The notes: generated from the letters alone by a model not told the origin. 64,000 nucleotides of DNA from Chlorobiota bacterium (GCA_034670025.1 JAXMOE010000001.1:229889-293888); one strand, 5' to 3'. Positions 17,647 through 52,445 are shown, counted from the stretch's first letter. Numbers and translations are program-made.

Positions 17647-18777
17647 TCAAAAGTTTTTCTTATTAAATTCTATTACTTCTTCAATTTCCTCTGCACTCAT
17701 TTTATTGATATAATGTTTTGATTGAGTTTGTATTGTATGACCAATTAATGAACGTACAACATTATCATTTAGAGTATAATCATTCATCATTTCATTTTCA
17801 ACTAACTTTCTTATTGCATGAAATTTTACTTCTTCTACGTTTTTTATTCCTAACATTTTCCTATAGTTATTAATATGCACTCCCATAATTCTTGACGTTT
17901 GGAGATTAAGCAAATTACTACTCTTAGAAAAACTCTTTTCATTAAACTCTAAGGCTTCTTTTAATAATGGTTCTAATTCAGGTCTAATGGAATAAGGGAA
18001 CTCTCTCCATGTATTATTTTTTCCGTCAATTAATAGTTTTTTAGGTTTGATGTGCCAAGGTTGCATCTTATATACTTCCCCAATCCGCATTCCTGTTATA
18101 CCAATAACTCTTAATACAAAATAAAGTTTAGTTGCTGACATTTTACTTTTGGGCTTACTACAATTGTCAATGTATTTACTTAACTCATGAACATATTTAT
18201 TTAGTTGATTCCTTGAACAAATTGTGAATTTGAATTTAGCTTTTTTAATTTTAATCCAAGGTTTAACAGGATTTGTTGTAATAATGTCAGATTCAATCCC
18301 AAATTTGAATATGGATCTCAATCGCTGAATAGAGGTGTTTATAGTTAAGTCCGAATAATTTTCTATCTCCTTCATTTCAAGAGCTCTTCTATTGACAAAT
18401 TTCGTGATTTCAACCATGTTGTCTAAATAAAAGTCATTATTATCGACAATCCTTTTGATAGAATTAAGAAAAGTTTCTTTAGTATTATCTTGTATGTGCT
18501 GAAACTTTAACTCTTTATATAGCAGAAACAGCTCAGAAAACTTATCAACTCTATTAGTATTAAATCCATTCTCACGATTGTAATATTCGCGAACTCTTTT
18601 ATCTAAGACTTGTATAGCAAAATCTTTGTTAGTTTTCTTCCAAGGTAAGTTCTTTATTGATTTCCTGTCACCAAATACATAGGTGTGGACATATCCATCC
18701 CTCTCAAAACAATAGACACCTTTTCTGTGATCAGGGTGATCCCATCGTCTTCCTTTCTTTTTTCTAGTCTTTCCCAT
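17647..18777 (-). CDS. tyrosine-type site-specific integrase
   Basis: 376 aa. C-terminal catalytic region (R...HAIRK...LIGHT...KHYI) typical of the phage integrase family, with an N-terminal SAM-like domain. Confidence 0.85.
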   Translation of the reverse strand: MGKTRKKKGRRWDHPDHRKGVYCFERDGYVHTYVFGDRKSIKNLPWKKTNKDFAIQVLDKRVREYYNRENGFNTNRVDKFSELFLLYKELKFQHIQDNTKETFLNSIKRIVDNNDFYLDNMVEITKFVNRRALEMKEIENYSDLTINTSIQRLRSIFKFGIESDIITTNPVKPWIKIKKAKFKFTICSRNQLNKYVHELSKYIDNCSKPKSKMSATKLYFVLRVIGITGMRIGEVYKMQPWHIKPKKLLIDGKNNTWREFPYSIRPELEPLLKEALEFNEKSFSKSSNLLNLQTSRIMGVHINNYRKMLGIKNVEEVKFHAIRKLVENEMMNDYTLNDNVVRSLIGHTIQTQSKHYINKMSAEEIEEVIEFNKKNF

Positions 18778-33590: not shown

Positions 33591-35579
33591 TTAAGACTTT
33601 ACTACTTCTTTCAGCACTTCACTTAAGTCCATTAAAGTAAAAGGTTTGGGGATAAAGTGTGTTAGTCCAATCTTATTCAAATCTGATATGTCTTTACTCT
33701 CGGTAAAACCAGAAGTAACAATTATATTTATTTCACTATTTAGCTCTTTCAGCTTTTTATAGCATTCTTTACCGTTCATTTGTGGCATAATCATATCTAG
33801 AATAACTAGGTCAATTTCATCAGATTTACTTTTAAATAACTCAATTCCTTTTATCCCATCTTCAGCAAGTAATACTTTAAACCCTAGCTTTTCTAAAAGT
33901 ATTTTTGTCGTTACTCTGATTATTTCTTCATCATCTATTACTAGAATGGTTTGATTTCCAGCTATTAATTCATTATTGTTATTTACTTCACTATCTAATT
34001 TAGCATTCTCAGATAAAGGTAATAGTACATTGAATGTAGTACCTATGTTTAATTCACTATATACAACTATCTCACCACAATGCTCCTTAACAGCCCCTTG
34101 CACTGATGACAACCCTAAACCTGTACCTTTACCTCTTTGCTTAGTTGTAAAAAAGGGATCGAATACTTTTTTAGCTACTTCTTTTGTCATGCCGTGGCCT
34201 GTGTCATTGATAGAGATAAGAACATAATGACCTGGCTCAACGTTTAAATATGAATGTTCTAAATCTTGCTTAGAATAAAATTTAGACTTTGTTGCAATGC
34301 TCAATGTGCCTCCATTTGGCATCGCGTCAAAAGCATTAATAAAAAGGTTAATAAAAATGTTCTGTATTTGAGATTTATCCCCTTTTATAATGAAATCATT
34401 ATCTGAAACTTTAAAATCAAAAATTATATTTTTATTAATTCGACTAGAAACTAATTCAAGAGAAACGTTGATTTCATCAATCAAATTTAATTCTATAGAT
34501 TGGAACTTACCTTTTCTTGAGTAATCAAGTAATTTTTTAATTAATTCTGCGGCTCTATTACTCGCATTTTCTATGATACCTAAAGCTTTCAATGAATGTT
34601 TATTAAGACCTTCATCGTACTTCATTAATTCAACAGAATTAAGAATACCAGTTAGAACATTATTAAAATCGTGAGCAACTCCTCCTGCTAACAATCCAAC
34701 CGCTTCCATTTTCACTTTTTGAGCTAACTGTGCCTCAATTTCTTTCCTCTTTGTTATATTGTTTATCTTAATAATAACATCATGTTTAACATCCGCCTCC
34801 ATTGGAAAAACTTTTACTTCATAAAAATTTAGTTTATTATTCTTTGTAGCCTGTTCTTCGAATGAAAAAGTAGTATTGTTTTTTATACATTCTTGGATTC
34901 TAATTTTATGATCTTTTAATAAATCAAAATAATTGAATAAATATTTTCCTAAAACTTCTTTATCGTCATTTTTTGTTAATAATCTTCTACCAAACTTGTT
35001 TATTAATGTAATTTCAAATTGGTCATTAATCCCAATTAATGTCGATGGCATTGAATTAATTACACCTTCTAAATACATAGTTAATCTTTCCACTTCGTTT
35101 TGATTCTTAAGTTCTTCTGTTACATCTCTTAAAACTGCAAAGCTCATTCTTTCATTTAACAGTATTGCGGATAGTTTCATATTTAATATTTTACCAGATT
35201 TATGAATAAATTCATAGTCAACTTCATCTAGGTACTTTTGTTCATAAAAAAGTGGTAATATTTCACTAATAGCTTTTTCTTTACTTTTTGTTGTTAAAAA
35301 ATCAGTAGATTTCTTACCAATAACCTCATGTTGTTCGTATCCTAGACCCTTTAACCAATAGTCACTAACATCAATTATATGACCCGACTCATTTATTGAA
35401 TGAAAAATTGCAGGGATTTTCTTCAACACATCAAATTGTTTAGAATTTTCTACACTAGAACATTCATCAAGCTCATTTGATAAAATTTCAAAAACAGTTT
35501 TTGAAATAGCTTCGTCGTCAAAAAGAATTTTAATCTTTTCCTTAAAAGTATTTATTGTTCCGTTGTCCATAATTCTCAA
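33591..35579 (-). CDS. hybrid sensor histidine kinase/response regulator with PAS domains
   Basis: H-box AHDFNNVL, ATPase N/G boxes (DTGHGM, GTGLGL), C-terminal receiver (LVIDDEEIIR...DLVILDMIMP). Confidence 0.85.
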   Translation of the reverse strand: MRIMDNGTINTFKEKIKILFDDEAISKTVFEILSNELDECSSVENSKQFDVLKKIPAIFHSINESGHIIDVSDYWLKGLGYEQHEVIGKKSTDFLTTKSKEKAISEILPLFYEQKYLDEVDYEFIHKSGKILNMKLSAILLNERMSFAVLRDVTEELKNQNEVERLTMYLEGVINSMPSTLIGINDQFEITLINKFGRRLLTKNDDKEVLGKYLFNYFDLLKDHKIRIQECIKNNTTFSFEEQATKNNKLNFYEVKVFPMEADVKHDVIIKINNITKRKEIEAQLAQKVKMEAVGLLAGGVAHDFNNVLTGILNSVELMKYDEGLNKHSLKALGIIENASNRAAELIKKLLDYSRKGKFQSIELNLIDEINVSLELVSSRINKNIIFDFKVSDNDFIIKGDKSQIQNIFINLFINAFDAMPNGGTLSIATKSKFYSKQDLEHSYLNVEPGHYVLISINDTGHGMTKEVAKKVFDPFFTTKQRGKGTGLGLSSVQGAVKEHCGEIVVYSELNIGTTFNVLLPLSENAKLDSEVNNNNELIAGNQTILVIDDEEIIRVTTKILLEKLGFKVLLAEDGIKGIELFKSKSDEIDLVILDMIMPQMNGKECYKKLKELNSEINIIVTSGFTESKDISDLNKIGLTHFIPKPFTLMDLSEVLKEVVKS

Positions 35580-38978: not shown

Positions 38979-40874
38979 TTACATTACAACTAAAGTTACC
39001 AATCCTGTTCCATCTAAAGTATTAGTCCCTGTACTTGTTGGATTATTTTGTATCTGTATTTTAAGTGTACCAGCAGTATTTGTAACAATAGTACCTATAA
39101 ATCTATAAGGCGTAGATAAAACAGAAGAATTTAAATCTTCAAAATTAGTTGCATCATAGCCAAAATCTCCATCAAAAAAACCAGAAGTAAAAGTACCAGT
39201 GTAGTTAATCCTAGTGTCAATTTTCCCAGATCCAGTTTCATTAACTTGGAAATAGCCAAAAAGTTGATATACGGTATTTGCAGCTAAAGTGAATTCAATT
39301 CCTGTATCTTGATATGTACTACTTAACGTTAAACTGTTAGGTGTATCAGTAGATGCTGTAGCTCCACCACCACCACCTGCAACTGTAGCCCAGCTTAAAT
39401 TAGTTCCATCAGTTGTTAAATATCTACCAGAATTACCTGATTGTGACGGTAAATTACCTTGCTTTCCATCTAACTGAGTTTGTACATTTGAAGTTACAGA
39501 ATTAATAAATTGAAGCTCAGTGCTTGTTACCGAACCGTCTGCTAATTTTGTTGCATCTATTGCAGCACCTGCTTTTATGTCTGAATTTTCAATATTTGTG
39601 ATAGTGTTATTATCTGCATCTATTGATTTATTTGTTAAAGTCTGTGTATCTGTACTACCAACTACGTCTCCCGTTGGTACTGCTTTAACTGCAGTTACTG
39701 CACTAGTTCCATTTCCCTGTAGAAAATTACCAGTTGCTAAAGTTGTTGCTCCTGTACCACCATTTGTAACTGACAAAGTTCCACTTACTGAGTTAGCATC
39801 TCCTAATGGCAATGAACCATAAACAGCAGCTGTTCCTGCTGTGCCACTTGAAAGTAATACTTGATTAGCAGTTGCTGAAGAGTTTACTTCTAAGTTAGTA
39901 GCATTTGATAAGATAGTGCTAGACCCACCTGCGTTTAATGTATTTGTAGCAAAAGATAAACCATTACCAGCTGTTATAGTTGCTTGTTTGCCGTCTAGTT
40001 GTGTTTGTACGTTTGAGGTTGTTGAATTAATATACTGAAGTTCAGTACTTGTTACAGATCCATCAGCTAACTTAGTCGCATCAATTCCAGCATTGGATTT
40101 AATATCTGCATTCTCAATATTAGTTATTGAGTTATTATCTGCATCTATTGATTTATTTGTTAAAGTCTGTGTTGCTGTTGTACCCACTAAATCCCCTGTA
40201 GGTAAACCAGTTGTGGCAGATAATAGACCTGAAGAATTTGCAGATACAATTCTATTGCCTGTGCCTGTTAGAGAACTTACAGTAACATTTGTGGGTGTCA
40301 ACGATAATGCATCTGTACTATTTACACTAATTACACCTGTATTTGCACTATAACTTAGCTCCATTTCTGTATTATTCAATTCTCCATTGTCTGGACCTAT
40401 GTGTAGGGTGCTACCGCCTACATAAACATCATCCCATCTGTTATCATCTGCTCCAATAGTACCGTTAAGTGTTTGTGGGTTAAAATTACCACTATTGTCT
40501 AACACCGTCGCTTCAGCCTGTATTAATATTAACTGGTCATATCTTTTTTGAGAAAATAATGTACCATTTACATAAATATCTAATAATGTAAATGTATTGA
40601 TTACAGAAGCATTAATTCCTGACCAGTCGCCTGTAGACCCACCCGCTGGGTAATCGTTTACGTTAACTATTACTATTCCATTATCGTTTGGTGCTAGACT
40701 GAAAGTCTCCCCTCTAAATAACAATGTATTACTGGTATAGTCTTTTAGTTCAATATAAACGTTCTGTGCAGCTGTGTTATTAGTGTAATAAGCTACTTTA
40801 GATGGCTCTAATCCATAAGATGTCAAAGAGCAAATAAGTAAGATTAGAACAGTTATAAGTTTGAATTGATTCAT
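38979..40874 (-). CDS. secreted tail-fibre-like repeat protein with signal peptide and two tandem ~140-aa repeats
   Basis: Signal peptide MNQFKLITVLILLICSLTSYG. Repeated block ...TQTLTNKSIDADNN(S/T)ITNIEN(A/S)DIK...IDATKLADGSVTSTELQ(Y/F)IN...NVQTQLDGKQ. G/T/S/N-rich. Confidence 0.6.
   Translation of the reverse strand: MNQFKLITVLILLICSLTSYGLEPSKVAYYTNNTAAQNVYIELKDYTSNTLLFRGETFSLAPNDNGIVIVNVNDYPAGGSTGDWSGINASVINTFTLLDIYVNGTLFSQKRYDQLILIQAEATVLDNSGNFNPQTLNGTIGADDNRWDDVYVGGSTLHIGPDNGELNNTEMELSYSANTGVISVNSTDALSLTPTNVTVSSLTGTGNRIVSANSSGLLSATTGLPTGDLVGTTATQTLTNKSIDADNNSITNIENADIKSNAGIDATKLADGSVTSTELQYINSTTSNVQTQLDGKQATITAGNGLSFATNTLNAGGSSTILSNATNLEVNSSATANQVLLSSGTAGTAAVYGSLPLGDANSVSGTLSVTNGGTGATTLATGNFLQGNGTSAVTAVKAVPTGDVVGSTDTQTLTNKSIDADNNTITNIENSDIKAGAAIDATKLADGSVTSTELQFINSVTSNVQTQLDGKQGNLPSQSGNSGRYLTTDGTNLSWATVAGGGGGATASTDTPNSLTLSSTYQDTGIEFTLAANTVYQLFGYFQVNETGSGKIDTRINYTGTFTSGFFDGDFGYDATNFEDLNSSVLSTPYRFIGTIVTNTAGTLKIQIQNNPTSTGTNTLDGTGLVTLVVM
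39470..40250. repeat. intragenic tandem DNA repeat (two ~260-bp copies about 520 bp apart)
   Basis: 40-bp identical core TATTATCTGCATCTATTGATTTATTTGTTAAAGTCTGTGT at 39613-39652 and 40131-40170, with about 75% identity in the flanks. Confidence 0.7.
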
Positions 40875-42482: not shown

Positions 42483-43837
42483 TACAAAATCTCATTTAGT
42501 GTTATAATTAATTGTTCAATCTCGTCTTCTACCTTTACAACCTTGAATAATTTATTCCTTCCAATTATTCTATTACTATCATTCTCTGACAGATCACTAA
42601 TATCTACAGCGTTTTTACTATTATATTTCAGTACTAAGTTACCAGATCCTTGACTATCTGAACCAATAATATAATTTCGCTCTTCAATAACTTCATCAAC
42701 AGAATACTTCTTTTTCAACTTACTAAATTCAGAAGGTGCTACGGACTTAGTTTGATATATGTAACCATTTCTGCCAGTAGGAGATTTAACAGCTTTATCA
42801 ATAGCAGTATCAAGAACCTTTTTATATCCAGTTAATATTTTCCCAGAGCTACCACCTGCAGACTTTAACATCTCTTGCATCTTTTCTGTTGTAATTGCAT
42901 TCAGAGAAGACTTTTCTTCTTTAGATAGGTTCTTGTGTGCATTCCGCTTTGTCTTATCTCCTGCTGTCTTCTCCATTGACGATTTGAGTATTGTAGAACG
43001 TTTGGCATTGCTCAAATCCTTTTTTGTGTATTTTGTCTTTGATTTTAATAGCTCTCTTGCCTGTTCCCTCAATTCTCTGGAATACTTCTTCATGTCTTTT
43101 TCAAAGTCCGTGCCTCTAGGGTCAAACTTATCCATTGCATCCAAATCTATCTGAGGAACATTCTTGTCTAGCTTCAAGTCTTTCAATGCTTGACCTACAG
43201 ATTCTACTTTACCACCCATGTTCTTTAATTGCCTTTCTGATAATGACCTCATACGGCAATGACAACCAAATCCATTAGGTGGATATATCCGATGAATCTC
43301 AGGGTCATCAGCTCTAAATATCTTACCTTCTAACTTTTCATGAGTCTTCCTCTTCGTATCCCTTTCTTTTTGCATATAAAGCAAATAAGGTCTGGACTTA
43401 CTCGCTTTCATTTGTTGCTTAAACCTTGCCTGCTGTTGTGCTACCCTGATATTGGTTCGGAGAATTAAGTTTAATCTACTTTCAGAACCTAACTGAATTG
43501 TTTTCATTTCTCCAGTCTTTGGGTCTTTGATTGTCTGCTTCCCCCACCAACCTTTTTTTTGAAGTATCGGTATTAATCCCTCTTTGAACTCCTTAACGGA
43601 TTTCCCAGAGGATTTGAAGTCTTCTATTGCCTTGAAAATATCATCAAGCAAATCTAATTGAGAAACCTTTGCAACTGTGAACGCTTTGGCGTGAGCTTCA
43701 CCGCTAATAGAATCATATCTATCAGTGATGAGCTTACTCTCGCCTTTCTTCCTCAGTGCATCAAGTCCTTTGTCAGCACCTTTGTCTCCGACTTTCTTTA
43801 GTGCATCTGCTAATGTATTTGATAATAGCTTAGGCAT
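42482..43837 (-). CDS. phage head morphogenesis protein (Mu F / SPP1 gp7 family)
   Basis: Conserved ...RADDPEIHRIYPPNGFGCHCRMRS (NCRC motif) and a basic C-terminal half. Confidence 0.7.
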   Translation of the reverse strand: MPKLLSNTLADALKKVGDKGADKGLDALRKKGESKLITDRYDSISGEAHAKAFTVAKVSQLDLLDDIFKAIEDFKSSGKSVKEFKEGLIPILQKKGWWGKQTIKDPKTGEMKTIQLGSESRLNLILRTNIRVAQQQARFKQQMKASKSRPYLLYMQKERDTKRKTHEKLEGKIFRADDPEIHRIYPPNGFGCHCRMRSLSERQLKNMGGKVESVGQALKDLKLDKNVPQIDLDAMDKFDPRGTDFEKDMKKYSRELREQARELLKSKTKYTKKDLSNAKRSTILKSSMEKTAGDKTKRNAHKNLSKEEKSSLNAITTEKMQEMLKSAGGSSGKILTGYKKVLDTAIDKAVKSPTGRNGYIYQTKSVAPSEFSKLKKKYSVDEVIEERNYIIGSDSQGSGNLVLKYNSKNAVDISDLSENDSNRIIGRNKLFKVVKVEDEIEQLIITLNEIL

Positions 43838-45276
43838 TATATTTCCTCTGACACCTGTGTAACAGCAATCATATCAGATATTAATTCCTCTAATTCAGTT
43901 GTGTCAAGGTTTGCATTTACTTCTAAAATACTCTCTTTAATCTCTTCAAATGATTTACCTTTGTTAATCATATTAATGATTGGCTCTACAGTTTTCTGGA
44001 ATTTATCAGCTATTGTGTCTTCTATTTCACTCTGTGCTGAGAAGTTGTTCATAGGTCCAGTTGGTGGAGCGGTCTCCACATTTGATATTTCAAATTCTGA
44101 ATCTTGAAGAGAGTAAGTCTTCTTGATATACTCTTTAGTAAATTCAACCCCTAACCCTTTCAATATTGTATCAGTTTCAGCCTGTGCTTTTATTTCGGAA
44201 GTCTGACCTTTAGCAATTAATTTATAAACAGGGATTTCAGCTTCTTCAACCTTCCCAAAATTTATATGTACCATTTTAGTAATAATATCATTCATATTCC
44301 CAACTACAAGTTTTGCATCTGAGTCTCGAATGATATTTATAGATTGAGTAATCTGTTCTCTGTTTCCCAAAGCTCCTGCAACACTATCTACAGCCGATGA
44401 ATGTGATAAAATAGCTTTAGCAATCTGTTTATCACATACCTCTATGAATCCTTTATATATCTCACTCGAAGATGAGTCATTTCCTTTTATTACAAGAACA
44501 TCATCAGTACCAGGTATTGCACCTGTTCCATCTTGGAATAGTCCATCTAATGCAGAAGTCATTTCGTTAACTTCTTCCTTAGAAGCACTGTAGCTTTCAT
44601 CTTTAGCATTTTTACCAACTAACCCTAACAAGTGTATCATACCATATTTCTCAACAAACTTTGCAAAGAATTTAAGACCTGCCTTTTTAAACATAACGGG
44701 CCAATAACATTTTTTGAAAACAGCATTTCCATAAGGGTTTAAATATGTTGGATAGTTCTGAACTACGGTAAACTTCTGTTTGGAAAGTATTTTACCTTCT
44801 GCTCCGTGCCCTTTCCCTAAAAATCTTAGTCTGTTATTTGTGTCGAATGTAAACCAATGAGGAGGCTTCCCAACAGCACTCGAAATGTATTTATATCCAT
44901 TAGCATCTTCGAGCCAAATTAATTCCATTACAGAGTAACCATAGGCAATAGCATCAAGCATCTCACCAATGGTTTTTTCCATATCCCATTTCTTGATTAC
45001 ATTATTGACAAATTGGAATATATCATCTCTGGTCTTACTTGGATCAAGTTCCCAATCCATTGATTTTACATTATCCTTCCTTAACTGCAAAGCTGCGGAA
45101 ACTTGGTCGTCAATATCCAAGTCATAATATGCAGATAAATTTCTGTTTAAATTCTTTAATACTATATCTGGATTTGGCAACGAACCAAAAATAGAGCTGT
45201 ACGCATTCATATCTTTTGCCTCAGCATCAACTCCAAATATCTCTTTTGCTAATAATTCTTTATTTATATCACCCAT
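43837..45276 (-). CDS. phage portal protein (Mu gp29/DUF935-like)
   Basis: 479 aa, between the large terminase and the F-like gene. Acidic C-terminus. Confidence 0.6.
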   Translation of the reverse strand: MGDINKELLAKEIFGVDAEAKDMNAYSSIFGSLPNPDIVLKNLNRNLSAYYDLDIDDQVSAALQLRKDNVKSMDWELDPSKTRDDIFQFVNNVIKKWDMEKTIGEMLDAIAYGYSVMELIWLEDANGYKYISSAVGKPPHWFTFDTNNRLRFLGKGHGAEGKILSKQKFTVVQNYPTYLNPYGNAVFKKCYWPVMFKKAGLKFFAKFVEKYGMIHLLGLVGKNAKDESYSASKEEVNEMTSALDGLFQDGTGAIPGTDDVLVIKGNDSSSSEIYKGFIEVCDKQIAKAILSHSSAVDSVAGALGNREQITQSINIIRDSDAKLVVGNMNDIITKMVHINFGKVEEAEIPVYKLIAKGQTSEIKAQAETDTILKGLGVEFTKEYIKKTYSLQDSEFEISNVETAPPTGPMNNFSAQSEIEDTIADKFQKTVEPIINMINKGKSFEEIKESILEVNANLDTTELEELISDMIAVTQVSEEI

Positions 45277-46712
45277 TACATGAACCCTTCAGTTATTGAT
45301 TTTTTATTTGTCTTTTTAGGAGAACTGTAGCGTTTAGCCCCTTTGTTCATAGTCTTAATTATCTTCATTAATATTTGTATTGCAATTGAGTATACATCTA
45401 CTTGGTCGTCGTGCTTACCACTTGGAAACCTTGCCAACTCATTAATAAAATCAGTATTCCAACTCATACCTTTAGGCAGATAAACAATTTTATTTTCTAG
45501 TGGGCTTGATACCATATTAGCTCTAACTACCTTGTTCATTGTTTTAACAGACTTTATAGGTATACGGTACTGGTATGGTAAAACTTGTAGTAAAGACTGA
45601 CCACTCCCTGCATCCTCTACATACAATTTATCTGGTTCCCAATAATTGTATAACCTGACAGCATTTTTCTCCAAATTATTAAAGTCAATTTTCTTTCTAA
45701 ATACATCTAATAAATAATAGTGATGCTCATCAATACCAATTGTTAAGCACACAGAAAAATCGTTCGTCTCACTTTCTTTAAAAGCTGTATCCCATACCTG
45801 AATGACGAAGTCTAAGCCCTTTCTCTTTACAACTGGCTTTTCATTATAGTATTGCCAATTGCTTGGGTCAAAGATAATTGAGTTTGTAAGAACTGGCTTT
45901 TGTTGGTATAGTGAAGTGAAGAAACTACCTTGAACTTCTTTCTGCTCTTCTATATACTCTTCATCAAATCTTTGTGGCCACAAAACATCACCTTTCTTTC
46001 TCCCTAAAACATCATCCTCTTCTGCAATAGCAGGAAAGTTTACTACCTCCCAACTATCAGGGTATGTTTCTTGCAAATAGCCTGCAATGTCATCATAATG
46101 CCATCTGGTCATTACAACTATCACAATCCCATTCGGAGATAATCTGGAAAAAGCTGTCGATGCAAACCAATTCTTCATTGACTCCCTGTAAGTAGGGGAA
46201 AAAGCTTCTTCGTGATTCTTAATCAAGTCATCAATTATAAGTAAATCAGCTCCCTTACCAGTAATAGACCCTTTCCAACCGTGAGCTTCCACACCGCCAC
46301 TATGTCTTGATATTTCCCAACTTGATTTTGACTTAGTGCTTTTACTTACATCTAAACCAAATAGATTTTTACCGTGTTCTAAGAACAAATCTCTAGTCCA
46401 ACCGCCATACTTATTAGCAAGGTCAGATGAGTGCATAGTAATAAATACCTTTTTATTCGGATTATTACCCAAATACCAAACAGGAAAATACCTACAAATC
46501 AATTCTGATTTTCCGTGTCTCGGGGGCATATTTATAATTATACGTCTCTTTTTTTTTGCGACTGCATCCAATAGTATATTATTCACATAAAGCAAATGTT
46601 TTGCTAAATGGTACTTCCCACCTGACATATAATAAGCCATAGAGATAGGAGTACCAGTAGCAAATTCAACACTATTAGTCACGGATTTCGTCAAGATTCT
46701 GTTTGCCCTCAA
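45276..46712 (-). CDS. phage terminase large subunit
   Basis: N-terminal ATPase (PRHGKSE Walker A-like). C-terminal RNaseH-like nuclease region (VEDAGSGQSL). Confidence 0.65.
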   Translation of the reverse strand: MRANRILTKSVTNSVEFATGTPISMAYYMSGGKYHLAKHLLYVNNILLDAVAKKKRRIIINMPPRHGKSELICRYFPVWYLGNNPNKKVFITMHSSDLANKYGGWTRDLFLEHGKNLFGLDVSKSTKSKSSWEISRHSGGVEAHGWKGSITGKGADLLIIDDLIKNHEEAFSPTYRESMKNWFASTAFSRLSPNGIVIVVMTRWHYDDIAGYLQETYPDSWEVVNFPAIAEEDDVLGRKKGDVLWPQRFDEEYIEEQKEVQGSFFTSLYQQKPVLTNSIIFDPSNWQYYNEKPVVKRKGLDFVIQVWDTAFKESETNDFSVCLTIGIDEHHYYLLDVFRKKIDFNNLEKNAVRLYNYWEPDKLYVEDAGSGQSLLQVLPYQYRIPIKSVKTMNKVVRANMVSSPLENKIVYLPKGMSWNTDFINELARFPSGKHDDQVDVYSIAIQILMKIIKTMNKGAKRYSSPKKTNKKSITEGFM

Positions 46713-47376
46713 CTTCTTTTAAAATCTTATTGAAGTGTTCTCTCATCTTATCACTTTCTGCTATCACATTCCCTATTCGTTTCTTAGCTTCTTCGTCTTC
46801 ACCAAATCTATTTTCAATAATCTCACCTGCTAAACCGAGAATATTTCTCTCTGTATTAATTAGGTTAATCATGTGTTTCGATGAATCTTTTGTCATCTCA
46901 AATAACTCAGCAACTGTAAGGTCTTCTAGTTCTTTTAAATTATACTTCATATTACCAGCTTCATCAGTAGTGTACAGCTTCTTGTGCAAAGCCAATTTCG
47001 CTAATGAAATTAACTTCTGATATGATTGCAACTCTAATAAATGAGATTTTTCCCTAGACTCCAATGCTTTTTTCTTGGCTTCCATTGTTGCTTCAAGTTC
47101 AATTTTTTGAAGCTCAACAACCCGTTCTTTCCATTGATATTTATCCCTCCAAACATATAAGTGCTGTTTGGATTTAAGGCCCAGTTTATCCTTAACCATG
47201 TCCATATTCCGCTTAGGTCCTAAATCTCTAAATATTTCCCAAGCTTGATATGCCTTATCAGATTCATCTTCCAATCTAAGCAATACGCTATTATCTTTTA
47301 TCATCGGGTCCCCATGCTTTACTGAAACTATGGTCTTTGATAATCTTTTCTTTTGGAATACCTTCCGAAATTCCAA
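46675..47376 (-). CDS. putative terminase small subunit / DNA-binding packaging protein (start uncertain)
   Basis: Directly upstream of and overlapping the terminase large subunit gene. Listed start overlaps the upstream gene by 86 nt; an internal Met is the likely start. Confidence 0.35.
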   Translation of the reverse strand: MEFRKVFQKKRLSKTIVSVKHGDPMIKDNSVLLRLEDESDKAYQAWEIFRDLGPKRNMDMVKDKLGLKSKQHLYVWRDKYQWKERVVELQKIELEATMEAKKKALESREKSHLLELQSYQKLISLAKLALHKKLYTTDEAGNMKYNLKELEDLTVAELFEMTKDSSKHMINLINTERNILGLAGEIIENRFGEDEEAKKRIGNVIAESDKMREHFNKILKEVEGKQNLDEIRD

Positions 47377-47806
47377 GCTTTACAACTTCCTCTTCTTCCA
47401 TTTGAAGTCTTCTCATTATTTCTTGTACCGGAACACCGCCTTTTATCATATCCCCAACAATCTTTGACATCTTAAAAACACCGTGAGTTCCTTTGGCTCT
47501 GTTGTGCCTAATGGTACTCATCTGCTGTGAAGTTAAATCTGTAGGGTTCGTAGTTGTAACAGGAATCTTACCACCATCCCTTTCTTTTATTCTCTTATCG
47601 TCCGATGCAAGCCAACGGTGATAACCATCAACAATCGTATTATCATTATTTTTTACTATTGGTTGAGTCCATCCGTCTTCCAGAATTGAAATTACTAATA
47701 GTTCAAAATCATATTTGGTCATAGAGTTTGGGTTGTAATTGTTTGGGTTTAATGTGTCTCGATCTACCCATTCAATATTATCTATTGGTTGTTTGAAATT
47801 ACTCAT
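47291..47806 (-). CDS. ParB-like nuclease domain protein (IbrB-like)
   Basis: DGYHRW motif of the ParB/Srx fold. 4-nt ATGA overlap with the upstream PAPS-reductase-like gene. Confidence 0.65.
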   Translation of the reverse strand: MSNFKQPIDNIEWVDRDTLNPNNYNPNSMTKYDFELLVISILEDGWTQPIVKNNDNTIVDGYHRWLASDDKRIKERDGGKIPVTTTNPTDLTSQQMSTIRHNRAKGTHGVFKMSKIVGDMIKGGVPVQEIMRRLQMEEEEVVKLGISEGIPKEKIIKDHSFSKAWGPDDKR

Positions 47807-48939
47807 TCTGTTACCTCAGGTTTCTTACCTTTCTTAAATTTCATTGTAGCTGACTTACGTTTTTTAAAGTCCCCTCTAATAGCACAGTCACATAAGAACT
47901 TCCAACTACAACCAGTCTCGTGATGCGGTTTGCTATCTGGGATTTTGTCATTAGTGTCCTTGTAGTGTAGTCTGATAGAGTCATTTATACCTTTCTGAAC
48001 TATTGACTTGTAAGGCTCTTCATATCCAGTCATTATTACCTCATAGTAATCTTCCCATTTGTCGTAAGCAGGAGGTAATACTTTTCCTGTATATAATCCA
48101 ACATTCGAGTACCTAAGGGCAGTTCTCGCTCCTCTTACTCTATCTTGCATCTTCCCCCAAAGTGCGTGGTCTATTAATTGGTATTCTCCAATCCCCCGAA
48201 GTGGCTCTTCACCAAAAGCATTACTTACTCTTTGTTTCAAGAACCTATTATGATAACCTGGTATCTTATCCAAAGCATCGTAATATCTATTATAATCCCA
48301 ATTGAATTTTTGAATCCCAGACCAAACATCTTCACTAGTCCAATCATAGACAGGGTGAGCTATATGAATATTCCCATATCGATGTGCAATGTAATTATCT
48401 GACTTCTTTCTAAGGACAGCCATTCTTCTTCTTAAACTTTCCTGAGCTCTAATTCCAGTTAGAAAGCAAACATTACCATTGAAGTCCTGATACATCTCAT
48501 CACAGAATTGTGGCATTGTTAGACCAGGTTTAAATCTTCTATGAGTTGTGATTGCATTTTCTGGCATATCTCTACACCATAACGGTTTCTTAGATGGTTC
48601 CCAAGGATACCACCACGGCTCATTATTACTACAAGCGTTTCTATGCTTAACAGGAATGCAATACCATTTGAAATCAATATCAGGATTGTTGGATATTCTT
48701 TCTACATACTCAATAGTCTGACTTGTAATTGCTTCTTCATCAATATATACAACCTCTAAGGGCAACTGCTTAAGCTCTTTTGCAACGACAAGAGCAAGGT
48801 TTAACACAACCGTAGAATCTTTTCCACCAGAAAAAGATACTACTACCTTGTCAAATCTATTGAAGCAATCTCTTATTCTTAGCCTTGATTCATCTAATAC
48901 ATTGGTTGTATAGACGATTTGCTTATGTGATAAACCCAT
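47803..48939 (-). CDS. PAPS reductase-like PP-loop ATPase (IbrA/DUF3440-like)
   Basis: PP-loop VVSFSGGKDSTV. C-terminal Cys cluster (CSWKFLCDC). Confidence 0.65.
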   Translation of the reverse strand: MGLSHKQIVYTTNVLDESRLRIRDCFNRFDKVVVSFSGGKDSTVVLNLALVVAKELKQLPLEVVYIDEEAITSQTIEYVERISNNPDIDFKWYCIPVKHRNACSNNEPWWYPWEPSKKPLWCRDMPENAITTHRRFKPGLTMPQFCDEMYQDFNGNVCFLTGIRAQESLRRRMAVLRKKSDNYIAHRYGNIHIAHPVYDWTSEDVWSGIQKFNWDYNRYYDALDKIPGYHNRFLKQRVSNAFGEEPLRGIGEYQLIDHALWGKMQDRVRGARTALRYSNVGLYTGKVLPPAYDKWEDYYEVIMTGYEEPYKSIVQKGINDSIRLHYKDTNDKIPDSKPHHETGCSWKFLCDCAIRGDFKKRKSATMKFKKGKKPEVTE

Positions 48940-49811
48940 TATCCTACCTCATCTAAAAATTGTTTAGCAGTTGTTATAAGTGTAGATGCAAATTCAACAG
49001 TCTTTGGCTCAAATTCATATATCTCAGCCCAAGTATGTTTAAATGTGTTGTCTTTAATATCTTGCGAATGTCTTTTACGTCTAGCCCAAGGGTGAGTGCC
49101 TAAATAGAATGGTCTTTTCAAGTTATAAAAAGGGGGCAACTCCAAATTGTAATAATGTATCAAAGCCAAAACTTCTTCATGCGACCAATCAGAAATAGGA
49201 GAGTATCTTGTTATTCCTTTAGCGTTAGTGTAAATATTACTACCACCTGTACCAACATAATTATTGTCCGCCGTCCTTCTTCCCAAAAGGATAATATCTA
49301 ATTCATATTCTTTAAAGTAAATATCCTGTGCTCTTTGTTGCACTTGTCTATACCATATAGAACCGTACTTAGAGTTATCAGGGAAAAGCATTTCAGGATG
49401 ATTAGATAACCATTCTAAGTCTTGTCCAGTGTTGATTATCGAAATATCCATTGGGGAATTAGAATTCAGCCAATCCAAAAAGAATGAATACTCAAGATTA
49501 GTCAAGCCAATCATAGATTTTTTAATACCAACAATATCAGTTATGTACTTCAATGTAATTGAGTCTTTCCCACCGCTCCAAGCAATGGCTACGTTCTTAT
49601 CATGAACAATTCTTATCATTTCATTTGCAGTTTCTTCAATTCTCCTATCAATATGGTCTTTGCTAACAAACTCTTGAGGGTTGTTGAACACCGCTAAGAA
49701 TTTATCTCTTTCGTCTTGTGACTTCAATTGGGCTTTCCTTGGTAATACTTTTCTATTCATATCACACCGTCCTAATGTCTTTAAGGTTCTTAGCAGATAC
49801 ACCATTGACAA
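48939..49811 (-). CDS. PAPS reductase-like PP-loop ATPase (second copy)
   Basis: PP-loop IAWSGGKDSIT. Confidence 0.6.
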   Translation of the reverse strand: MSMVYLLRTLKTLGRCDMNRKVLPRKAQLKSQDERDKFLAVFNNPQEFVSKDHIDRRIEETANEMIRIVHDKNVAIAWSGGKDSITLKYITDIVGIKKSMIGLTNLEYSFFLDWLNSNSPMDISIINTGQDLEWLSNHPEMLFPDNSKYGSIWYRQVQQRAQDIYFKEYELDIILLGRRTADNNYVGTGGSNIYTNAKGITRYSPISDWSHEEVLALIHYYNLELPPFYNLKRPFYLGTHPWARRKRHSQDIKDNTFKHTWAEIYEFEPKTVEFASTLITTAKQFLDEVG

Positions 49812-50508
49812 TAGTTCTATTAATCATTGGGTGCTCTTCATCTACTGGACCATAGTCCGATGTCGGATGAAAAGCAACTACTCTCATTTCGTCAGTTGTA
49901 GTCTCAAAAGAGTGCGTACCAGTCAATGCGTATATTCCACCTTGTTGTTTTTTCTTCCCCTCTTCGTGAATGATAAATACCTGCCCTGGTACTAAATCAA
50001 TCTTTCCCCATGGTGTGATGCACTTACCTTTTCCGCTCACTATCATACCAACTCTTTTGTCAGGATGGGTATGTTGTGTCTGTGATATTCCTTTTGGGAA
50101 GTATAAAAGATTAAAACAAGGATTTCCTTTCATTACTGGTGGTATCAAAAGTGAATCTGTGCAACCATCAATATATTTTAATCTCCCTTTGTGTTCTAAC
50201 TTTCCACCTATGTGGAAGAAGCCATTGTATTTTATACTCTGTATAACTATACCATTTCCACCGATTACTTCTACCTTATTAGGTACGGAAGCGTACATTT
50301 CGGACTTCAATGTAAATTCTCCTTCCTCTGTTTTAATCAAAGCTTCTCCGCTGTGATTAAATATAAAGAAAGTGTCTCCCTCCGATTCTAATGCTAACGG
50401 TTTGCTCTCAACATAACCGAATAGTTTCGTAGGGTTCTTATTGTCTGAATCATTAAACAGTAATTCTGTTTTTGTTAATTCAAACGGACTGTAGCTTGGA
50501 TTCATCAT
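49762..50508 (-). CDS. cupin-fold protein
   Basis: HTHPD...G metal-site-like motif and beta-rich composition. 248 aa. Confidence 0.45.
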   Translation of the reverse strand: MMNPSYSPFELTKTELLFNDSDNKNPTKLFGYVESKPLALESEGDTFFIFNHSGEALIKTEEGEFTLKSEMYASVPNKVEVIGGNGIVIQSIKYNGFFHIGGKLEHKGRLKYIDGCTDSLLIPPVMKGNPCFNLLYFPKGISQTQHTHPDKRVGMIVSGKGKCITPWGKIDLVPGQVFIIHEEGKKKQQGGIYALTGTHSFETTTDEMRVVAFHPTSDYGPVDEEHPMINRTIVNGVSAKNLKDIRTV

Positions 50509-51169
50509 AATGCTCCATAATTTTAATTAAACATTCAGGAGTGCTATTGGAATTGATAACACTCTTTGCTCTATTTATAATATCTGTAATTTTTGCTCTG
50601 TCTTTTTCTTTCATCAAACAACTGAAAAGTACATTGTCATCCTCAGTAATTTTTAATTTGTTTTCCTTATCCTTGTCATCGGGGTAGCTTTTCTCGACTT
50701 CATCAGGGAAGTTCATATCTGGGACATCAACTTCTTTTGATAGTTCAATCATTGATTTATCGACTGTATCCATATCATTCATCTTCTGGAATATTGCCAA
50801 ATGATCTTCATTATTTCCTAGCTCTACTATCTCTGTAGGGGAAAATAGTTTTGCCAATTTTTCTTCATTCCACTTCCCTGCAATATTTTGATTTAGTCTA
50901 TAATTCAGTCTTTTGAACTGCTCGTAGTTTAGCTTTTTGGTCGATCTCTTGATGTCAACTTCCTTGTCTCCGAGCTCAATTAGACATTCTAAAGTTTTGT
51001 GACCACCACAAATTGTATAGTTTTTATTCGTGACTATCACACCTGCAAACCCAAATTCATTGAAGCTTTCCTTCAAGTATTTGACGTTTTCTTCATCCGT
51101 ATCTCGTGGATTGTCTTTCCACGGTTTGAGCTTTTCTATACTAACTCTTTCCGTTACCCACTTAATCAT
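50480..51169 (-). CDS. ParB-like nuclease domain protein (second IbrB-like)
   Basis: KLKPWKDNPR (ParB box II NPR) and a GGH motif. Confidence 0.65.
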   Translation of the reverse strand: MIKWVTERVSIEKLKPWKDNPRDTDEENVKYLKESFNEFGFAGVIVTNKNYTICGGHKTLECLIELGDKEVDIKRSTKKLNYEQFKRLNYRLNQNIAGKWNEEKLAKLFSPTEIVELGNNEDHLAIFQKMNDMDTVDKSMIELSKEVDVPDMNFPDEVEKSYPDDKDKENKLKITEDDNVLFSCLMKEKDRAKITDIINRAKSVINSNSTPECLIKIMEHYDESKLQSV

Positions 51170-51344
51170 ATCTCACCTTTTATTTTATGAACTGTAGCAA
51201 TAGTTAGCAATTTAATAATCAATGTTCGCAAACCTCTTTGTTGTCAGCGTTGCAAACTGCAAAGCAGACAGCATTGCTATTGTGTTGGCAGTCTTTATTG
51301 TGGCGTGGAGTGGCTATATCTGAAATTGCATATATCAAATAATA

Positions 51345-52445
51345 ATGGATTACAATATGTGGATTACAGTATTTAAAGCAGGAACTCATAAAAACAACGC
51401 TGGTGTAGAGCAAGAATACACAGAAGCGGATTTACATGAGATTGCGAATACATACAATAATCAGCCTGTTAATGATAAGCATACAGCTCCTTTAGTACCA
51501 GGAGACCATGAGAAGATTCATTTCTCCGATGGTGAATTGATGATTAAACCAAGTATGGGTTGGGTAGAAAAGTTAAAAGTGGATGGGCAAAATCTACTTG
51601 CTAAGATTGACCCAACAGCGAAATTTACAGAAGCTGTCAAAGGTAAGTATTACCAGAAACTCTCAATATCTGTAAAGGCTAATAAGCTATTAGACCACAT
51701 TGCTTTGCTCGGCTCAGTAAAGCCTGCACTTAAAGGTTTACCTGATATGCAATCCTCTTTTACTATGAATGTAAAAGATTTAAGTGATGTCGATTCTTAT
51801 GAATTTTCAGCCGAAGAGCCTGCTTCACCGAAGAAAGAAGAGCCAAAACCTAAAGATAATTACGAAGAACCAAAACCAAATTTAAACAATAACCAAACAG
51901 GTGAAATAATGTTAATGACATTAGATACAGTAAAAATGATTGAATGGGTGAAAGCTGAATTCGGTGATGAAACAGCTACAAAAATGCAAGAAAAACTTCC
52001 AGAATTCAAAGGTAAGGAAGAAGAGCCGAAAGAAGGAGAAGAACCTAAGCCAGCCGAAGAGCCAAAGCCACAAGGTGATTTCTCCGAGAAGAGCAACAAA
52101 GAGTTGACAGCAATGCAAAACAAAATTGATGCTTTAGAAGCTAAAAACAGAATGCACGAATTTAGTGAGTTCCATGGGACTACTAATGTACCAGTTGGTT
52201 TAAAAGCTACTGCACTCAACGTGTTGGAAATAGCTCACAACGCTGAAACTTCTAACTTCTCAGTTCAGGATGAGAACGGCAAGGATAATACTCCTACTGC
52301 AGTCGTGAAGTCATTTATGAAAGCGTGGCCAGAATCGGTTAAGCTTGGAGAAAGTGAAGATGTCAACGGTTCTAATTTCTCTGAACCTGGTAAAGCGGAA
52401 GAAATTTCTTCTGCGACTGAATCTTTTAACAAGAAAAGAAAATAA
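51345..52445 (+). CDS. putative prohead protease/scaffold protein (Mu gpI-like position)
   Basis: 366 aa. C-terminal PK/E-rich scaffold-like repeats (EEPKPK...). Precedes the decoration-like and capsid genes. Confidence 0.4.
   Translation: MDYNMWITVFKAGTHKNNAGVEQEYTEADLHEIANTYNNQPVNDKHTAPLVPGDHEKIHFSDGELMIKPSMGWVEKLKVDGQNLLAKIDPTAKFTEAVKGKYYQKLSISVKANKLLDHIALLGSVKPALKGLPDMQSSFTMNVKDLSDVDSYEFSAEEPASPKKEEPKPKDNYEEPKPNLNNNQTGEIMLMTLDTVKMIEWVKAEFGDETATKMQEKLPEFKGKEEEPKEGEEPKPAEEPKPQGDFSEKSNKELTAMQNKIDALEAKNRMHEFSEFHGTTNVPVGLKATALNVLEIAHNAETSNFSVQDENGKDNTPTAVVKSFMKAWPESVKLGESEDVNGSNFSEPGKAEEISSATESFNKKRK

Follow-up and report, generated by a model that had tools for sequence, protein, structure and literature searches.

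A bicupin and a second PP-loop enzyme extend an IbrA/IbrB-type ParB cassette ahead of the terminase genes in a Chlorobiota prophage

A 64,000-nucleotide stretch of DNA from a Chlorobiota bacterium (GCA_034670025.1 JAXMOE010000001.1:229889-293888), hereafter called the window, carries five co-directional open reading frames (ORFs) on its minus strand at positions 47291-51169, in the order ParB1-cupin-PAPS2-IbrA-IbrB. This block is a real feature and more than a chance arrangement: it belongs to the IbrAB-type modules of ParB and PP-loop proteins that lie before the terminase genes of phages, here in an extended form. Specifically, it is one variant of a widespread phage cassette composed of four family-level parts and a variable fifth gene, which in the window encodes a bicupin. 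What is new is the extension of a known pre-terminase trio by this bicupin and a second PP-loop enzyme. Gene content, intact motifs, synteny, and family memberships are established here. As for function, we favor a ParB-guided, ATP-dependent modification of phage DNA that would be expressed along with packaging, and we assign this reading a probability of roughly 0.4.

Gene content and conservation of the cassette

An initial annotation of the window had described the block as a doubled set of ParB-like and phosphoadenosine phosphosulfate (PAPS) reductase-like genes flanking a cupin gene beside the terminase. The ORF map confirms the five minus-strand genes, directly followed by terS, terL, and the portal gene, and the motif and profile matches given below bear out the two PP-loop proteins, the two ParB-domain proteins, and the assignment of one pair to the IbrA/IbrB type. 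The doubling itself did not hold up. Recent local duplication was rejected because the supposed paralogues are barely alignable (ParB1 and IbrB at E=0.017, PAPS2 and IbrA at E=0.005), and the four proteins fall into four separate PHROG families. Judged by these comparisons, phrog_620, phrog_2159, phrog_424, and phrog_2302 form an old recurrent module and not a local doubling.

A search of IMG/VR with the cupin alignment found 302 stretches encoding a relative, of which 80 loci were kept, and partner genes were counted from tblastn searches in which the window proteins and two diverged sets served as queries. IbrA and IbrB follow the cupin in 72 of the 74 loci with enough downstream sequence, 70 of which have the order cupin-IbrA-IbrB on one strand. 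Upstream of the cupin, 61 of 69 viral loci have ParB1, and 18 loci have PAPS2 between the cupin and IbrA. After IbrB, the first ORF with 330 or more residues encodes a large terminase subunit (TerL) in at least 49 of 56 loci. The TerL matches comprise Terminase_6N (27), lambda-type GpA (15), Terminase_3 (13), and TerL_ATPase (7); those to Terminase_3 may overlap those to Terminase_6N. At least three non-overlapping Pfam TerL families are represented. Therefore, the position before the terminase is conserved irrespective of terminase type.

Extremely large numbers of PAPS2 relatives are found in gut Caudoviricetes and in prophages of Lachnospiraceae, with one cluster indexed in 713 blocks. The gene order in these gut phages is Na+/solute symporter, PAPS2, a ParB1-type gene (phrog_620, 6e-43), IbrA, IbrB, terS, terL, and portal, such that the same four PHROG families (424, 620, 2302, and 2159) occur without the cupin. 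That a phage-borne symporter is tied to the module suggests an external small molecule as a substrate. The symporter itself has 460 residues, matches phrog_20720, and lies directly upstream of PAPS2, which it overlaps, in these phages (for example L180, 3617-8086; L183; L179).

Among GenBank phage records, 223 carry an IbrA-like gene and 225 an IbrB-like gene, and pairs of this type are also found in more than 1,100 database clusters. The core ParB/PAPS-reductase/ParB trio before the terminase is already annotated in cultured phages, as seen from the gene orders of mycobacteriophage Yinz (gp1 ParB, gp4 "PAPS reductase-like", gp5 ParB, gp6 terminase) and Arthrobacter phage Kovu (ParB, PAPS reductase, ParB, acetyltransferase, terS, terL). 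The 50,697 GenBank phage records include a single PAPS2 homologue, on an unannotated gut contig that also carries ParB and IbrA genes, and no homologue of the cupin.

Other genes join the cassette in some lineages. A class-II glutamine amidotransferase (N-terminal MCGIWG; GATase_6/7) is encoded between PAPS2 and IbrA in four related loci, assigned by Pfam in two and by sequence in the other two. One locus has a further PAPS_reduct protein, another has a DNA methyltransferase inserted in the cassette (phrog_757, 5.8e-57), and two have a PD-(D/E)XK nuclease. In six loci (for example L055, 8916-9413), a conserved protein of about 165 residues with shared FPHxYTTR and EYWEMGRP motifs is encoded between IbrA and IbrB; it has no Pfam, NCBIfam, or PHROG match. 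Similarly without a match in these three databases is a 166-residue, cysteine-rich ORF (CPSAGCGFRCC plus further cysteines) located between the cupin and PAPS2 in the closest relatives of the window (L001, 6704-7204; L002-L004; L018-L020), which has no counterpart in the window. The 5′ end of a TTG-extended PAPS2 frame (49761-49811) resembles the start of this cysteine-rich gene. As this stretch also runs, in a different frame, over the 3′ end of the cupin gene, the resemblance does not have to mean that a gene was lost here.

The PP-loop enzymes

IbrA combines PAPS_reduct (60 bits against a cut-off of 22.5; 4e-16) and DUF3440 (30.1 bits against 25; 4.8e-7) in one PP-loop protein, and an adjacent, co-directional IbrB gene overlaps its gene by 4 nucleotides. 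It matches phrog_2302 at 1.6e-82 and is 29.6% identical across 98% of its length to the annotated IbrA of Escherichia phage PhiR5_2. PAPS2 is more divergent, reaching 23.2 bits with PAPS_reduct, barely over the same cut-off, and 2e-16 with phrog_424; it has at least 811 homologues, nearly all with PF01507. The SGGKDS loop is invariant in both families.

The two enzymes differ in their cysteines. The PAPS2 family alignment has no conserved cysteine, and PAPS2 can thus be neither a thiol-dependent PAPS reductase nor a persulfide-type sulfurtransferase. The amidotransferase that accompanies it in some phages instead suggests a chemistry in which a substrate is adenylated and then aminated. In IbrA relatives, C94 is kept in 93-100% and C103 in 75-97%, and the usual pattern is four cysteines, the other two falling at the columns of S239 and I256 of the window protein. 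The window's clade lacks cysteines at 239 and 256 and has C344, C350, and C352 in their place, within CSWKFLCDC near the C-terminus. These look like relocated metal ligands rather than a loss of the site, and such relocation makes a genuine metal site (Fe-S or Zn) more likely than a chance occurrence of cysteines. The cysteine cluster that the initial annotation noticed in one PP-loop protein is thus present in the 378-residue IbrA, as a clade-specific feature and not a family motif; the C-terminal CxxxxxCxC was rejected as a conserved Fe-S motif since it is found only in the window's clade.

A structural model of IbrA (predicted local distance difference test score, 83) matches PAPS and APS reductases, CysD, FMN adenylyltransferase, and TtuA through its N-terminal domain only, and the fold search gave no match for the DUF3440 part. 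Sequence searches of IbrA, PAPS2, and the cupin against the Protein Data Bank (PDB) returned marginal or generic matches only. In the PADLOC defense library, IbrA matches only BrxP (2.7e-11), DndC (2e-9), and SspD (1.6e-4), in partial, fold-level alignments. The models for CysH and for PAPS and APS reductases (TIGR00434, 22.6 bits against 165.1; TIGR02057, 23.6 against 254.2; TIGR02055, 19.2 against 235.3) and for DndC (TIGR03183, 29.2 against 290.4) all score about ten-fold under their cut-offs. Thus, the profile searches that the initial annotation had in mind recover PAPS_reduct, DUF3440, and, by PHROG, the ParB proteins, and do not recover a DndC-like motif.

Two family assignments were considered and rejected. 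An assimilatory PAPS or APS reductase (CysH) fails on these scores, on the missing conserved cysteine of PAPS2, and on the lack of a C-terminal ECGLH-type motif in the IbrA sequence. Membership in DndC, SspD, or BrxP fails because no family-level score is reached and the partner genes were not found: no cysteine desulfurase, DndD/DndE, SspB/SspC, or PglZ/BrxC/BrxL is encoded in or beside the block, nor among the prophage ORFs that were scanned, which are not every ORF of the window.

The ParB-type proteins

Both remaining core proteins belong to the ParB/Srx superfamily, as defined by a ParB_N fold and an arginine motif. IbrB is recognized by its DGYHR motif, and ParB1 by PHROG families together with its NPR box, which is conserved in the motif alignment. 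ParB1 has no Pfam match and reaches 1e-18 to 1e-20 with PHROG ParB families, the best being phrog_498 (9.8e-20), the ParB domain of ParB-DNA methyltransferase fusions, followed by phrog_620 (1.5e-18); the N-terminal region of the PADLOC model MTase_II matches it at 7e-10. One such ParB-DNA methyltransferase fusion nicks DNA, and ParB/Srx proteins can be nucleotidases (PMC5512222). IbrB matches phrog_2159 at 1.8e-60, falls under the Pfam cut-off for ParB_N (20.5 bits against 26.3), and shares 38% identity (E=2e-33) with the IbrB annotated in phage PhiR5_2. Its DGxHR and RxNRxxGxH motifs are conserved, with D60, G61, H63, and R64 in the first and R100, N102, and R103 in the second, and we read its C-terminal helical tail as possibly helix-turn-helix (HTH)-like. 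A chromosome or plasmid partition function was rejected for these proteins: there is no adjacent ParA-like gene, and no parS-like repeat stands out in 46000-52000.

The bicupin and its bacterial contexts

The fifth protein has two double-stranded beta-helix barrels, one with a predicted histidine-rich metal site. Invariant residues include H146, H148, and H199, a probable 3-His metal site, as well as C116, C131, and C163. With at least 999 hits, the family is large, and sequence identity of about 50% across phyla makes it unusually conserved; its invariant segments include GRLKYIDGCTDS, QTxHTHP, and AxHPxSDxGP...HPMINRT. A fold search returned generic bicupins.

The bacterial context of the cupin was assessed in 80 genome loci, five of which proved to be prophage cassettes like the window's; the other 75, together with two nonribosomal peptide synthetase (NRPS) loci fetched earlier, make up 77 non-phage loci. 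In 39 of these the cupin adjoins an adenylate-forming enzyme. Seven loci have an NRPS and a stand-alone AMP-binding protein (Pseudomonas syringae, Corallococcus, and others), and 17 have an AsnB-like protein with glutamine amidotransferase (GATase) and Asn_synthase domains (Acidobacteriota, Myxococcales, Verrucomicrobiota, Bacteroidota, and Proteobacteria). In 15 Bacteroidota loci, an overlapping upstream gene encodes a protein of 356-395 residues with an invariant WSGGIDST PP-loop and no Pfam match, which aligns with the PAPS2 family in hhalign at E=1.2e-4 (55% probability). This recurrent association with adenylating enzymes fits the place of the cupin beside IbrA and PAPS2.

The WSGGIDST protein is always encoded directly upstream of the bacterial cupin, after a protein of 152-224 residues without an assigned function (e.g. 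L106, 5848-6942; L124, 5931-7004). Searches of this family against the PDB gave marginal or generic matches only, and the pair resembles a PP-loop/cupin operon of an undescribed kind. A co-directional cluster headed by the cupin gene occurs in Pyrinomonadaceae, Myxococcales, Verrucomicrobiota, and others (L113, 6992-12109; L136, 7001-11869; L169, 6941-10561); it continues with a membrane-like protein of about 326-331 residues bearing an N-terminal zinc ribbon, two more proteins without an assigned function, and an AsnB-like amidotransferase. This may be a biosynthetic cluster. The Maricaulis-type context, with divergent NeuB and AAA genes, was uninformative.

Operon structure and prophage setting

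The genes of the cassette and the packaging genes that follow are closely packed (Table 1), with junctions of 26 nucleotides (ParB1/cupin), about 1 (cupin/PAPS2), 1 (PAPS2/IbrA), 4 (IbrA/IbrB), and 14 (IbrB/terS). The start codons of PAPS2 and the cupin were judged from gene calls on an identical contig and from comparison with the homologous locus L001. PAPS2 most likely starts at the ATG at 49760, not at the TTG at 49811, and the cupin most likely at 50505.

Table 1. Features of the cassette and its neighbors, in window coordinates
Feature	Position	Strand	Description
ParB1	50480..51169	-	229 residues, ParB/Srx-fold; NPR box 51104-51112; GGHK 50996-51007
Bicupin	49762..50505	-	247 residues; ORF list allows 248 residues, to 50508
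PAPS2	48939..49760	-	273 residues, stand-alone PP-loop ATP-pyrophosphatase, PAPS_reduct family; SGGKDS 49560-49577
IbrA-type PP-loop enzyme	47803..48939	-	378 residues, PAPS_reduct and helical DUF3440; SGGKDS 48814-48834
IbrB-type ParB_N protein	47291..47806	-	171 residues; DGYHRW 47612-47629
terS (small terminase subunit)	46675..47304	-	209 residues; phrog_6299 5.7e-12; gene call on identical contig
terL (large terminase subunit)	45276..46682	-	Terminase_6N and 6C, Pfam 2.6e-16 and 1.2e-13; gene call on identical contig
Portal (Mu-type)	43837..45276	-	Portal_Mu 8e-69
Divergent intergenic region	51170..51344		Between the minus-strand cassette-packaging operon and the plus-strand head-gene operon

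No terminator-like site was found on the minus strand between 43000 and 52500, and it therefore seems that the cassette and the packaging genes are transcribed together, starting from the divergent intergenic region, the presumed promoter region of this operon; a promoter scan around the block gave chance-level results with a model that may not fit the host. The arrangement suggests that the cassette is also translationally coupled to terS, terL, and the portal gene.

The first 17.5 kb of the window are host chromosome, encoding a TSP3/OmpA protein, hsp33, an acyl-CoA dehydrogenase, nusA, infB, ribF, pnp, and a penicillin amidase. An integrase gene follows at 17647-18777 on the minus strand, with phage replication and recombination genes beyond, and on these grounds the block lies in a prophage, whose left junction would fall near 17.5-19 kb. 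Its nearest IMG/VR relatives are contigs of 59-62 kb, and a DNA-level search against known phages gave no match. Elsewhere in the prophage, a 207-nucleotide imperfect direct repeat (39458-39664 and 39983-40189; 80% identity) lies within a 631-residue ORF (38979-40874, minus strand) that has no PHROG match; this repeat probably represents a domain that recurs within a structural or receptor-binding protein. A 662-residue protein (33591-35579, minus strand), encoded in a region of low G+C content (28-29%), has its matches in PHROG families, several without an assigned function (phrog_5982, 1.7e-87) and one with a kinase annotation (phrog_10912, 2.2e-32).

Possible functions of the cassette

What might such an assembly do? 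We propose that the two ParB/Srx proteins would bind phage DNA, possibly nicking it or clamping it in an NTP-dependent manner, and would recruit the PP-loop enzymes. IbrA may then spend ATP to adenylate the DNA at a base carbonyl or at a phosphate, be it backbone or terminal, and its putative cysteine-ligated metal site could help deliver the incoming group. PAPS2 and the cupin would make or activate the transferred group from a small molecule, a supply step that may be served in other phages by a glutamine amidotransferase or a solute importer, or with the help of an acetyltransferase. Because the cassette appears to be expressed with the packaging genes, every packaged genome would be marked, and the likely benefit would be protection from host restriction.

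A nucleic-acid modification module is the most economical reading because of the methyltransferase-type ParB, the DndC/DndB-like pairing, the DNA methyltransferase inserted in one cassette, the strict catalytic motifs, and the fusion to the terS/terL operon. Conserved SGGKDS loops, C94, C103, and the moved cysteines would also be expected if catalysis matters. In phosphorothioation, DndC works with DndB, a ParB-superfamily protein (PMC10853773), such that a PAPS-reductase-family enzyme is paired with a ParB-superfamily protein there as well (PMC10853773, PMC12839542). A more specific version, possible but doubtful, is an undescribed post-replicative modification in which the ParB proteins load the PP-loop enzymes onto DNA and the AMP placed on a base or phosphate is replaced by a sulfur- or nitrogen-containing group from a lineage-specific helper, be it the bicupin, the amidotransferase, or the symporter.

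Several observations weigh against modification of DNA. It is context that points to DNA as the substrate, and the bacterial homes of the cupin, in NRPS and AsnB-like clusters, point to small-molecule rather than DNA chemistry. The cassette has no transglycosylase, nucleotide-precursor pathway, sulfur donor (DndA or IscS-like), or DndD/DndE/SspB/SspC, and no DpdA/TGT or preQ0 genes were seen among the annotated ORFs. The resemblance to DndC, BrxP, and SspD is weak and, for the most part, does not go beyond the common PP-loop fold. The GxxR motif of ParB1 reads GGHK(T) in the window's clade and GGHxR elsewhere in the family, and therefore NTP binding by ParB1 is uncertain. Some cultured phages carry IbrA/IbrB away from the terminase: PhiR5_2 has the pair by an antirepressor gene, S. 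thermophilus phage CHPC1062 within its lysogeny region, and a Microcystis phage next to recombination genes. Finally, Sandt and colleagues reportedly described IbrA and IbrB in 2002 as activators of prophage eib genes, and to our knowledge this activation is the only experimental report on the family. Regardless, a DNA-modification or packaging-linked chemistry, as suggested in the initial annotation, is plausible: context adds support to it, and sequence alone cannot prove it.

In the original E. coli work, both IbrA and IbrB were reportedly needed to activate prophage eib expression. Some ParB-like CTPases, such as VirB, act as anti-silencers. The cassette might accordingly be a gene-expression switch in which IbrAB co-activate prophage genes, possibly by relieving silencing by nucleoid proteins, and the extra genes tune the response. 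The homology of the window proteins to annotated IbrA and IbrB, the prophage nature of the element, and the position of the cassette at the head of the packaging operon beside a divergent regulatory region are consistent with this idea, as is the finding that the E. coli ybdNM operon is repressed by YbdO, whose gene (ybdO, or citR) is itself H-NS regulated (PMC9068703). Such a switch is nevertheless unlikely. Strict conservation of PP-loop motifs and metal-ligand cysteines in two enzyme families is hard to explain for a pure regulator, and so are the recurrent cupin, amidotransferase, symporter, and methyltransferase accessories; moreover, the trio is also present in virulent cultured phages. 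Activation could itself result from DNA modification, and thus the co-activator role and DNA modification may be compatible with each other.

Somewhat less probable again is small-molecule or nucleotide chemistry that does not involve DNA, in which the cassette makes a metabolite for host takeover or counter-defense (such as a modified nucleotide, or an amino-acid-like compound that is amidated or conjugated) and the ParB/Srx proteins act as NTPases or regulators. In its favor, natural-product-like clusters of bacteria place the cupin beside adenylating enzymes, PAPS2 comes with a glutamine amidotransferase in related loci, a symporter gene directly precedes PAPS2 in gut phages, and ParB/Srx proteins with nucleotidase activity are known (PMC5512222). 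However, the most constant partners in the cassette are the two ParB-type proteins, one with an HTH-like tail and the other of a methyltransferase-fused type, and this account offers no obvious reason for the pre-terminase position in at least 49 of 56 loci.

That position would be explained most directly by a packaging accessory, in which the ParB proteins recognize or nick the packaging start site for terminase with the PP-loop enzyme assisting, much as HNH proteins serve the packaging start site in some cos phages. The cassette is co-directional with and directly upstream of terS/terL, it overlaps terS, and its adjacency to the terminase extends across several TerL types and to cultured actinophages; ParB domains can also nick DNA (PMC5512222). 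We find this explanation improbable nonetheless. Since the association is independent of terminase family, lambda gpA-type TerL included, no single packaging mechanism would need the cassette, and most phages with these terminase types lack it. In addition, the IbrA/IbrB genes of several cultured phages lie at other places in the genome, and ybdNM persists in E. coli K-12 in the absence of a phage (PMC9068703). Neither a parS-like nor a pac-like repeat is conspicuous in 46000-52000, and the cupin, amidotransferase, and transporter have no packaging role.

The notion that the PAPS-reductase-family proteins are CysH-like boosters of host sulfate reduction, and hence sulfur-assimilation auxiliary metabolic genes (AMGs), draws on the Pfam family name, common annotation, and the treatment of phage homologues as such (PMC6145125; bioRxiv 10.1101/2021.07.29.453957), and is effectively refuted by the CysH and PAPS-reductase scores, the absence of a catalytic thiol in PAPS2 and of an ECGLH-type motif in IbrA, the ATP-type SGGKDS loop kept in both proteins, and a constant linkage to ParB proteins and terminase, not to cys genes.

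Comparison with known systems

The closest known relatives are IbrA/IbrB of E. coli prophage islands and YbdN/YbdM of E. coli K-12, in which a PAPS_reduct and DUF3440 protein is likewise followed by an overlapping gene for a small ParB_N protein. Window IbrA and IbrB align end to end with their annotated phage counterparts. Unlike the E. coli pair, however, the window pair shares a cassette of five genes with another ParB, another PP-loop enzyme, and a bicupin, and this cassette is fused to the packaging operon; no eib-type target gene is in view in the window, and in the window's clade two of the four usual IbrA cysteines have moved to the C-terminus. The trio of actinophages (cluster B mycobacteriophages such as Yinz; Kovu) has the same order of ParB-like, IbrA-type, and IbrB-type genes and terminase, and its IbrB proteins are 39-41% identical to that of the window, but two small ORFs of unknown function (Yinz) or an acetyltransferase gene (Kovu) take the place of the cupin and PAPS2.

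Phosphorothioation and related systems (DndC with DndB; SspD; BrxP of type 4 bacteriophage exclusion, BREX) also have a PAPS-reductase-family PP-loop ATP-pyrophosphatase acting on DNA beside a ParB-superfamily protein (DndB), and they show cysteine-ligated metal sites such as the one predicted for IbrA from its cysteine pattern. They differ in that the window block lacks DndA, DndD, DndE, SspB, and SspC partners, in the cysteine pattern of the IbrA family (four, or two plus three in the window) and the absence of conserved cysteines from PAPS2, and in location, since the window cassette is part of a phage late operon and not a host defense island. ParB-DNA methyltransferase fusions (phrog_498; the B. 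cereus ParB-methylase) provide a precedent for a ParB domain that serves a DNA-modifying enzyme, as proposed for ParB1. ParB1, in contrast, is a separate protein, and its neighbors are PP-loop ATP-pyrophosphatases, not S-adenosylmethionine-dependent methyltransferases.

A similar logic of adenylation followed by amination is used by glutamine-dependent PP-loop amidotransferases, including the AsnB type and the phage Gat-QueC proteins of 7-deazaguanine modification. It is echoed by the amidotransferase encoded directly after PAPS2 in the four related loci, and by the bacterial cupin homologues that adjoin AsnB-like proteins with GATase and PP-loop domains. The window differs in having no amidotransferase, and PAPS2 belongs to the PAPS_reduct family, not to Asn_synthase or QueC.

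Significance

IbrA/IbrB-type pairs are common, both in phages and as ybdNM in E. coli K-12, yet they have been without a mechanism for over twenty years. In agreement with the initial remark that their function in phages is unclear, work on phage IbrAB-like modules, DUF3440, and ybdNM in the literature searched goes no further than annotation and regulation, the latter as in the case of YbdO, and includes no functional study. The pairs are routinely mislabelled as sulfur-metabolism genes or virulence regulators: phage PAPS-reductase homologues have been labelled sulfur AMGs in the reports cited above and said elsewhere to "deserve further investigation" (PMC11437467), and IbrAB of Flavobacterium phages were listed as function-unknown proteins and possible virulence factors (PMC4541368).

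The locus described here places the IbrA/IbrB pair within a larger, modular cassette tied to the packaging operon, whose swappable helpers (cupin, amidotransferase, importer, methyltransferase) point to group-transfer chemistry. It also draws attention to a very conserved, uncharacterized family of bicupins, which have adenylating enzymes as partners in biosynthetic clusters of bacteria. A vague annotation is thereby turned into testable hypotheses, for which cultured mycobacteriophages and E. coli are ready test systems. If the undescribed type of DNA modification outlined above proves true, it would also explain E. coli IbrAB and YbdNM and the trio carried by hundreds of cultured actinophages. 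Furthermore, if DNA is the target, the cassette would represent a new class of phage genome modification, with relevance to restriction evasion, to host range in phage therapy, and to enzymatic DNA labelling.

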